Shown: positions 39,216 to 41,342 of the stretch, piece by piece
Numbering within the stretch: position 1 is the stretch's first letter
Layout of the letters: each line of letters begins with the position of its first letter
From: Escherichia coli
GTDB taxonomy: Bacteria; Pseudomonadota; Gammaproteobacteria; Enterobacterales; Enterobacteriaceae
Length of the DNA: 50,212 nucleotides
Strand: one strand, 5' to 3'
Assembly (NCBI RefSeq): GCF_003334315.1
Contig: NZ_QOWR01000032.1
The notes under the pieces: generated by a model
The model's input: only the letters and a program-made list of their open reading frames with translations
Databases searched by the model: none
Told to the model about the DNA's origin: nothing
Position numbers and translations under genes: made by a program

Positions 39216-41342
39216 TTAGTCCTCGTTTACAACCTTCTGCTGGGCGGCTTTTTTGGCCTGAGCGCGGGCAATAGCCGCGGCAACTGCCGCTTTGCGCGGA
39301 TCAACCTGTTCTTCTGGTACCGCATTAGCCTGTTGCTGTTCCAGCTTGCGTGCTTTGGCGCGTGCAATAGCCGCTTCGACGGCAGCTTTGCGCGGATCAA
39401 CCTGTTCTTCTGGCTCCGCATTAGCCGGTTGCTGTTCCCGTTTGCGCGCTTTGGCTCGGGCAATAGCGGCTTCGACGGCGGCTTTGCGCGGATCGACCTG
39501 TTGTTCTGGCTCGGCATTAGCCTGTTGCTGTTCCAGCTTGCGTGCTTTGGCACGGGCAATAGCGGCTTCGACGGCGGCTTTGCGCGGATCGACCTGTTCT
39601 TCTGGTTCCGCATTAGCCTGTTGCTGTTCCAGCTTGCGCGCTTTGGCGCGGGCGATAGCTGCTTCAACGGCAGTTTTACGTGGATCAGCAACGGTTGCTG
39701 CGTCGTTAGTTTGCTGCAGTTCTGCCTGTTTCGCTCTGGCTTGCGCTTTACGGGCTTCCCGTGCTGCAATAATTGCACTGTTATCCGGGCGTTCGCCCGC
39801 TTTAATCACAATAGGCTGTGTAGCCTGGGCCTGTTTCTCTTTCACCCGCGCCAGAGCGGCAGCAATCGCATCTTTATCTTTGGCTGCAGGTTGAACGGCT
39901 GCGCTCTTATGTCGTTCAAGGCGAGCCGCTTTTTCGCGCTCCAGACGAGCCTGGCGCGCTTCGAAACGCGCTTTGGCTTCTGCGGCGCGCTTTTCTTCCT
40001 GACGAATAGCCGCAATTTCAGCTTTTTCCTGACGGAAATATTGCACCAGGGGAATATTGCTCGGGCAAACCCACGCGCAAGCCCCACATTCAATGCAATC
40101 AGCAATGTTATGCGTGGTAGCTTTATCGTGTTGCTGACCTTTGCTGAACCAGTACAACTGTTGCGGCAAAAGATCCGCAGGGCAGGCGTCAGCACAGGCG
40201 CTACACCGGATGCAGCTTTGTTCTTCCTGTGGTTCGCCAAGTTCATTGGCAGAGGGAGCCAACAGACAGTTGGTAATCTTTACGACCGGGACATCCAGCC
40301 ATGGCAAGGTAAAGCCCATTAGCGGGCCACCCATAATCACCATTTGATCGGCAGAGGGGCAGAATCCGGCATCATTCAATAAATGACGCACTGGCGTCCC
40401 CAGCCGTGCCCAGACGTTGCCCGGGCGAGCGATTGCTTCGCCAGTCAGGGTTACAACACGCTCGGTAATCGGCTCGCCATCAATAACGGCACGTTTCACT
40501 GCATAAGCAGTGCCGACGTTTTGCATTAATACGCCGATATCGGATGAACGCCCGCCATGTGGAACCTGCTTCCCGGTCAGAATGTAGGTTAATTGTTTAG
40601 CACCGCCAGAAGGATATTTGGTTGGAATCACCCGCAGAGAAATATCGTTAGAGTCCGCCAGCACCGCGCGCAGCATGGAAATCGCCTGCGGTTTGTTATC
40701 TTCAATGCCGATAAGAATTTCGCGTGGCTGCAGAATATGCGCAAGAATGCGAATACCCTCTACGACCTGAGCCGCGCAATCCTGCATCAAACGGTCATCG
40801 GCGGTAATGTACGGCTCGCACTCAGCCGCGTTGATAATCAACGTTTCAATCTTATCTCCGCCACCCTGCAATTTAACGCCTGTCGGGAATCCTGCACCGC
40901 CCAGCCCGGCAACACCAAACTGATGTATGCGCTCGATTAACTCTTCGCGACTGCGAGTGCGATAATCGGCCCAGCCGTCGCGCGGGATCCAGCAGTCTTC
41001 ACCATCGGCATCAATAATCACGCTTAATTCAGCTAAAGCTGAAGGATGAGCCGTAGAGTGGGGCGCAATAGCCGTAACGGTACCCGAGGTGGGCGCGTGA
41101 ACAGGCAGCATTTTGCCGCGACCACGGGTAAGCGGCTGGCCGCGCAATACTTTATCGCCGACGCTAACGCACAACTCACCTTCAGCGCCAATATGCTGTT
41201 TCAGTGGAATAACAAAACGCTGCGCCAGGGGTACCTGGCGCAGGGGTGTACCGTTGGACTGGGTTTTCATCTCCGGTGGATGGATGCCGCCGTTGAAATC
41301 CCAGATTTTATTTTTTCTGAATGCAGAGAATAACTTAAGCAT
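39216..41342 (-). CDS. rsxC: RsxC (RnfC) subunit with 4Fe-4S ferredoxin motifs and C-terminal tandem repeats (708 aa)
   Basis: ORF 708 aa [34 protein letters not shown]...; two CxxCxxCxxxCP motifs; C-terminus built from 32-aa repeats [32 protein letters not shown]. Confidence 0.92.
39219..39683. repeat. In-frame 96-bp tandem repeat array within rsxC (4 near-identical units plus a degenerate terminal unit)
   Basis: The DNA shows 96-bp periodicity (…GCGCGGATCAACCTGTTCTTCTGG…GCATTAGCCTGTTGCTGTTCCAGCTTGCG…) encoding 32-aa Ala/Lys/Glu-rich units. Confidence 0.85.

Follow-up and report, generated by a model that had tools for sequence, protein, structure and literature searches.

A four-unit allele of the 96-bp coding repeat at the 3' end of rsxC in Escherichia coli

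The rsxC gene and its terminal repeat array

The gene rsxC, encoding subunit C of the RsxABCDGE (Rnf-type) complex, occupies positions 39216–41342 on the minus strand of a 50,212-nucleotide stretch of Escherichia coli DNA (contig NZ_QOWR01000032.1 of assembly GCF_003334315.1; hereafter, the window), and ends in a tandem array of 96-nt coding units that is the subject of this analysis. The gene was assigned from the list of open reading frames (ORFs), NCBIfam and Pfam matches, and its 100% identity to rsxC of strain HS30-1. The deduced protein of 708 residues, a length already given in the original prediction, matches the NCBIfam models NF003454 (867 bits; cut-off, 345) and TIGR01945 (597 bits; cut-off, 246), and contains the full RsxC/RnfC domain set in Pfam (E-values, 1e-31 to 4e-9), composed of RnfC_N (residues 14–115), Complex1_51K (139–283), SLBB (296–344), and two 4Fe-4S domains (373–430), with a NuoF-like flavin mononucleotide (FMN) domain among them. 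The catalytic core (residues 14–430; positions 40053–41303, minus strand) thus consists of the RnfC_N barrel, the FMN/NADH domain, the SLBB domain, and two 4Fe-4S clusters, and there are no Pfam matches past residue 430. The repeat tail itself has no match in PHROGs and is covered by no Pfam or NCBIfam model, except by the last ~85 positions of the RsxC model.

Between the catalytic core and the array lies a pre-array tail (residues 431–552; 39687–40052, minus strand), in which a long helix with a homologue at the C-terminus of Azotobacter vinelandii RnfC is followed by two old and diverged copies of the motif that recurs in the array, as judged from the alignment to chain C of PDB entry 8AHX (until residue 498) and from an AlphaFold model. 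These two copies, upstream of the near-identical units, are found at positions 39687–39950 (residues ~489–540). The substitution rsxC-I525F, which was fixed in a phosphate-starvation evolution experiment and judged null or neutral by the authors (PMC4759930), falls in the second of them.

A scan of positions 37000–41000 with Tandem Repeats Finder detected a single array (39262–39687; period, 96; 4.4 copies; 88% matches; no indels; score, 642). In the coding direction, four full units of 32 residues (96 nt, equal to 32 codons) are arranged head-to-tail in one frame (39303–39686, minus strand) as W0 (residues 553–584; 39591–39686), W1 (585–616; 39495–39590), W2 (617–648; 39399–39494), and W3 (649–680; 39303–39398). 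They are followed by the terminal degenerate unit W4 (residues 681–708, 28 residues; 39216–39302, including the stop codon at 39216–39218), which shows 32–36 differences from the full units per 87 nt compared. Four near-perfect, in-frame 32-residue units at the RsxC C-terminus had been the central claim of the original prediction and are found here as W0–W3, the interval proposed for them (39219–39683) matching the array to within 3 nt.

Around rsxC, further ORFs on the minus strand (192, 352, 206, 231, and 211 residues) correspond in order and length to rsxB, rsxD, rsxG, rsxE, and nth of K-12, as in the operon rsxABCDGE-nth. Across the array, rsxC is the sole long ORF with domain support; the plus-strand ORFs at 39111–40322 (403 residues) and 39292–39894 (200 residues) and an alternative minus-strand frame at 39227–39778 (183 residues) are supported by neither domains nor homology and merely reflect the GC-rich repeat, the pattern of synonymous and non-synonymous differences fitting the rsxC frame. 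No RNA family was found by Rfam at gathering thresholds on either strand of positions 38500–41500. An intragenic terminator and a PPE motif have been described in rsxC (PMC5021804); both are unrelated to the array, the PPE lying at residues 22–24 by sequence reading.

Allele structure and copy number among E. coli genomes

The rsxC gene of K-12 MG1655 (b1629) is 2223 nt long and encodes 740 residues, the length given in the original prediction when it proposed that the window allele is one unit shorter; that length is right, the difference is exactly 96 nt (32 residues), and alignment shows one 96-nt block to be missing. The 1656 nt before the array show zero differences between the window and K-12, and the K-12 array minus one in-register 96-nt block equals the window array, base for base. 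Consequently, in the hybrid unit W0 the head of K-12 unit 1 is joined to the tail of unit 2, and W1, W2, W3, and the terminal W4 are K-12 units 3, 4, 5, and 6, respectively. Since a 96-nt deletion from the K-12 array works from any unit offset from 39 to 87, the deletion or duplication junction is located by the unit alignment within a 48-nt tract (39600–39647, minus strand) that is identical in K-12 units 1 and 2. The difference between the two alleles has every appearance of the signature of one slippage or unequal-exchange event.

A second five-unit allele, that of E. coli B (strain C3029, NZ_CP014269.1), corresponds to the window allele with W1 present in two perfectly identical copies. 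The four-unit allele of the window is thus separated by a single unit-level event from each of two distinct five-unit alleles (K-12 and E. coli B), a relationship among alleles indicating that events of this type recur at the rsxC array. Among B strains, C3029 (positions 2149–2823 of locus L008) carries five units that include this identical pair, and in B-RalR, also named as a B strain, the array is as long as five units when judged from the span alone. BL21-Gold(DE3)pLysS AG (NC_012947.1; positions 1407–1985 of locus L007) carries a four-unit array identical to that of the window, either because this laboratory derivative lost a unit or because its 2009-era assembly collapsed one.

As for the mechanism, neighbouring units would have undergone slippage during replication or unequal homologous recombination within the 48-nt tract of identity, which changed one 96-nt block, either by loss from five units or by gain from four. 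A gain would imply that the four-unit allele is the older one in the lineage, and that separate duplications added a unit in K-12 and in E. coli B. In favor of this direction, an unequal crossover in a window-type array would create a hybrid of the W1 head and the W0 tail, which is precisely the composition of K-12 unit 2; the additional unit in E. coli B matches W1 perfectly, suggesting recent duplication; and the window allele stands one step from both of the differing five-unit alleles. However, conversion of the window array into that of K-12 needs one extra substitution (unit 1, position 88), whereas the deletion from K-12 needs none; five units are also the commonest state in the species. 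Taken together, we regard the gain from an older four-unit allele as a serious possibility, falling slightly short of an even chance.

To determine copy number, BLAST queries containing the array and its flanks gave ambiguous spans, as register-shifted pieces remained unjoined, and were replaced by flank-only queries, in which the span of a record between the flanks gives the array length. Two flank-only searches were made, each of 60 genomes taken at even ranking steps (59 usable in each; at least two genomes common to both). Arrays of four, five, six, and seven units were found in 8, 42, 5, and 4 genomes of the first sample and in 11, 39, 4, and 5 genomes of the second, respectively, giving pooled numbers of 19 (~16%), 81 (~69%), 9 (~8%), and 9 (~8%). 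In addition, the four-unit query aligned over at least 80% of its length, as arises when a record has four or fewer units, in 1100 of 5425 complete genomes. The share of the four-unit allele is about 16–20% of the 5,425 complete genomes.

The RsxC lengths found in RefSeq complete genomes (676, 708, 709, 740, 772, 775, and 806 residues) correspond to 3 to 7 full units; examples are JNEC-KY208 with 3 full units (676 residues), AVS0935 with 4 full units, one of them having an extra Gln (709), O157:H7 and NRG 857C with 6 full units (772 and 775, respectively), and EC12 with 7 full units (806). The view of the original prediction that the array is a coding variable-number tandem repeat (VNTR) changing by whole units agrees well with this series. 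The four-unit allele of AVS0935 is clearly derived from a B2-type array, and unit count is therefore homoplastic. In the alleles examined, the only length changes other than whole units are 3-nt gains of a glutamine codon. None of the rsxC alleles inspected was frameshifted or truncated, and zero-unit alleles were not seen among the E. coli genomes sampled. A contingency locus, in which units of 1–9 nt switch a gene on and off, was considered and rejected, the unit being 96 nt and every inspected allele being in frame and full length.

The original prediction had also raised the concern that a short-read assembly might have collapsed a unit, in which case the source strain would have five units as in K-12. 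An array of 4.4 × 96 bp at ~90% identity is indeed hard for short reads. The public protein collection contains large clusters of partial RsxC ending at contig ends (P0001, 184 members; P0009, 204; P0032, 172), which indicates that short-read assemblies commonly break inside the array; and the four units of BL21-Gold(DE3)pLysS AG against five in other B strains could be a collapse of this type. Nevertheless, 33 complete-genome records (UMNK88, HS30-1, NT1N31, ETEC4085, and others), originating from many unrelated projects and hosts, are 100% identical to the window over the 1101 nt of array and flanks. Four-unit arrays, at the frequency given above, occur on at least three sequence backgrounds (100%, ~98.4%, and ~96% identity to the window). 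Moreover, the K-12 units concerned differ at 8 positions, and a clean hybrid unit such as W0 is not expected from a collapse. The concern is thus not borne out, and a collapsed assembly behind the window allele appears very unlikely.

The 96-bp length polymorphism of rsxC is already known as a typing marker, the locus being ms11 of multiple-locus VNTR analysis (MLVA). This marker reportedly belongs to the Shigella / E. coli MLVA panel of Gorge et al. 2008 (J Clin Microbiol 46:1026). The ms11 forward primer GAAACAGGCCCAGGCTACAC (39818–39837, minus strand) and reverse primer CTGGCGCTGGTTATGGGTAT (39168–39187, plus strand) were each found in a primer search as an exact match that is unique in the window, and delimit an in-silico amplicon of 670 bp (39168–39837). 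With the 286-bp offset used for unit counting (PMC4644529 Table 1), this length corresponds to (670−286)/96 = 4.0 units, namely allele 4, and the in-silico amplicon of K-12 (766 bp) corresponds to allele 5.0. The primers and the 96-bp unit size are reprinted in PMC8215070 Table 1 and PMC4644529 Table 1, and alleles of 4.5–7 with a Simpson index of 0.68 were reported for 80 isolates (PMC8215070). With the same primers and unit, the published range of ~4.5–7 units fits the 3–7 units seen here, and there is biologically no difference between the two. In the portions of the MLVA papers available to us, ms11 is treated as an anonymous size marker, the gene being unnamed and the protein repeat undescribed.

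More recently, E. coli has been typed by 'RSXC repeat polymorphism' with classes R4–R7 (Jothi et al., BMC Genomics 2026; PMC13185298). The unit of that scheme is the same DPRK-initiated one of 32 residues with variable ends (QQV, EQV, EPV, and EQI); the window has five DPRK-initiated units, four of them ending in EQV, QQV, EQV, and EQV and the fifth being the terminal unit. The published count seems to include the terminal degenerate unit, because O157:H7 of sequence type (ST) 11 is given as R7, as compared with six full units plus the terminal one here; judging from this ST11 = R7 correspondence, the window probably carries an R5-type allele in that scheme. Six or seven repeats form the majority among the 83 genomes typed there, mostly O157/O26, whereas R6 (five full units) dominates in the broad sample examined here.

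Based on the base-for-base allele relationships, the frequency in complete genomes, and the identity with ms11, we conclude, with a probability of roughly 0.9, that the window array is a genuine and common allele of a coding minisatellite already described, namely the 96-bp VNTR with which rsxC ends. Several points weigh against this conclusion: slippage or recombination was deduced from the way the alleles are built and not seen to occur; the window's own assembly was judged by comparison with finished genomes and not from its reads; the frequencies are samples of a clinically biased genome collection and not a full count; and the label 'complete genome' does not guarantee a correctly resolved array, as BL21-Gold could be a collapse. 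The observation and the interpretation of the original prediction are both correct, the allele being ordinary and the polymorphism already published.

The helix motif of the repeat tail

Each repeat unit encodes a basic helix of ~22 residues, containing an 18-residue motif (net charge, +4), and then an acidic, proline-containing linker (net charge, −4), so that each unit is electrically neutral overall. In an AlphaFold model of residues 429–708, built from the single sequence (mean predicted local distance difference test score, pLDDT, 76; predicted template modelling score, pTM, 0.27), helices are located at model residues 4–79 and 93–123, followed by one helix of ~20–26 residues per unit. 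The intervening coils of 8–12 residues coincide with the AEPEEQV linkers, and the alternation of helix and coil is in step with the units; the tail model shows no tertiary packing (pTM, 0.27). Among solved structures, the RnfC chains in 8AHX, 7ZC6, and 9ERI align only to residues 14–498 of RsxC, and a PDB sequence search gave no solved chain covering RsxC residues beyond 498.

Comparison of the four units with one another gave, for the motif, proportions of synonymous (pS) and non-synonymous (pN) differences of 0.42 and 0.013, respectively, and a pN/pS ratio of 0.03; the ratio for the linker is 0.28. Units differ at up to 56% of the synonymous sites of the motif and at ~1% of its non-synonymous sites. 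A motif ratio of 0.03 shows that the helix motif is under strong purifying selection acting on the peptide, and that the units are old, with many silent differences between them, and do not represent DNA homogenised recently.

The motif is conserved far beyond E. coli. In 35 copies from 11 taxa, including Enterobacter, Citrobacter, Dickeya, Yersinia, Serratia, Erwinia, Haemophilus, Pseudoalteromonas, and an uncultured gammaproteobacterium, it is near-invariant as DPRKAAV[A/E]AAIAR[A/V]KA[K/R]K, with a period that ranges from 28 to 72 residues across taxa and with linkers unrelated in sequence. The constrained element is accordingly the 18-residue basic helix and not the whole E. coli unit, with copy number and spacing free to vary. 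A search of 1.84 billion representative proteins with a profile of the motif gave 228 clusters at E ≤ 0.001; among the 150 matches listed, all 24 of at least 570 residues have the RnfC domain set with the motif at the C-terminus in up to 13 copies, and the shorter matches inspected seem to be partial or frameshifted products of the RnfC gene. The motif is therefore specific to RnfC/RsxC tails of Gammaproteobacteria, in which 1 to about 13 copies are tolerated. The motif-bearing proteins in the search include P0121–P0130, of which P0125 has 971 residues.

A counterpart outside E. coli is the RsxC VNTR of Erwinia amylovora (PMC10587187), which occupies the same position in the protein, has the same 18-residue core, and is used for typing with 0–5 units. 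Its unit is 40 residues as compared with 32 here, its linker is unrelated and Ala/Pro-rich, and alleles of zero units have been reported. These zero-unit strains are among the observations that would favor a functionless, low-complexity spacer, in which repeats persist only through homogenisation at the DNA level. The RnfC proteins of Clostridia and Acetobacterium also lack the tail (PDB alignment; PMC12174285), and the tail has neither a Pfam domain nor a solved structure and, in AlphaFold, no packing. However, the excess of synonymous over non-synonymous differences in the motif points to selection on the peptide and not to DNA homogenisation, and the same 18-residue motif is kept from Enterobacterales to Haemophilus and Pseudoalteromonas on unrelated linkers. 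We therefore consider a functionless spacer rather unlikely. The statement of the original prediction that the function of the repeat tail is not established still holds, in view of the lack of Pfam and PDB coverage and of the literature, in which the function is called unknown (PMC10587187, PMC12174285).

Some indication of the location of the tail in the complex is provided by A. vinelandii RnfC (8AHX), whose long C-terminal helix aligns with residues 440–498 of the E. coli protein, and contacts RnfB and RnfH, with a function stated to be unknown (PMC12174285). The E. coli repeat tail starts (residue 553) ~55 residues downstream of the helix so aligned, whereas A. vinelandii RnfC stops at 496 residues, and the DPRKAAV motif was not found in the aligned part of its tail, the last 13 residues lying outside this inspection. 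The repeat tail would thus emerge after a long helix that contacts, in A. vinelandii, the ferredoxin-binding subunit RnfB. It is conceivable, although doubtful, that the helix is a multivalent docking module of the Rnf/Rsx complex with the copy number setting avidity; such helices might bind acidic partners, for instance SoxR, ferredoxin, or flavodoxin, or else anchor the complex at an anionic surface. If a role has to be named, our best guess, a purely conjectural one, would be an electrostatic, multivalent tether for acidic partners near the RnfB side.

The participation of Rsx in SoxR reduction is known for K-12 (PMC12174285, PMC4759930), and a further possibility is that copy number is itself selected and sets the strength of the tail function, such as the speed of SoxR re-reduction. 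This adaptive tuning would be compatible with the strong purifying selection on the motif, its conservation across orders, and its occurrence only in RnfC, and also with PMC13185298, in which repeat number is reported to correlate weakly with the number of virulence genes (rho, 0.32) and of resistance genes (rho, −0.28). Those correlations are, however, confounded by clonal structure, all ST11 being R7 and all ST21 being R6, and individual lineages, such as O157:H7 and the K-12 derivatives, each show a constant copy number. Nor does the array act as an on/off switch for the gene. Adaptive tuning is thus improbable. We favor instead a genuine VNTR allele on a flexible tail that follows the catalytic core and the long helix, in which a constrained helix combined with a free copy number would allow 3–7 units to be tolerated.

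The rsxD junction and wider observations

The ATG codon of rsxD (39213–39215; ORF, 38157–39215) abuts the TAA codon of rsxC, and a GAGGA Shine–Dalgarno-like sequence for rsxD, read from the sequence, lies within the last rsxC codons (39220–39224, minus strand). Because of this arrangement, a frameshift in the array would disturb the initiation of rsxD, suggesting translational coupling between rsxC and rsxD that may penalise frameshifts in the array. A unit length that is a multiple of three, together with the start of rsxD right after the rsxC stop, would confine the array to whole-unit, in-frame changes, and the coupling may help to explain why only whole-unit or codon-sized changes are seen and why the terminal unit has diverged. 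In ETEC1731 (NZ_CP122816.1; positions 2282–3339 of locus L009), rsxD is annotated as frameshifted by a 1-nt deletion, which could be a sequencing error or a pseudogene; rsxC of this strain is intact with five units.

Beyond housekeeping, the importance of the polymorphism is small, the marker being published and the four-unit allele being present in roughly one sixth of complete E. coli genomes. Differences in rsxC length between assemblies are usually real alleles, yet the array breaks or may collapse short-read assemblies, and 'non-frameshift deletions' in rsxC as well as signals from pan-genome and machine-learning analyses therefore need checking. For instance, an rsxC 'non-frameshift deletion' has been listed for olaquindox-resistant ATCC 25922 (PMC7696260 Table 3), and RsxC was picked as a predictive feature in a machine-learning study of O157:H7 (PMC12711010 feature table); both could reflect a VNTR change or mis-assembly rather than selected mutations. 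The strongly conserved, RnfC-specific helix motif also offers a cheap target for work on Rsx/Rnf structure or SoxR reduction.

Elsewhere in the window, positions 1–25000, where lhr, mdtK, ydhQ (AIDA repeat protein), and punC are located, have no uninterrupted match in any complete E. coli genome. The best records are 99.9% identical in three pieces that span ~323 bp more than the query, and this part of the window therefore contains at least one small indel or repeat-length difference.

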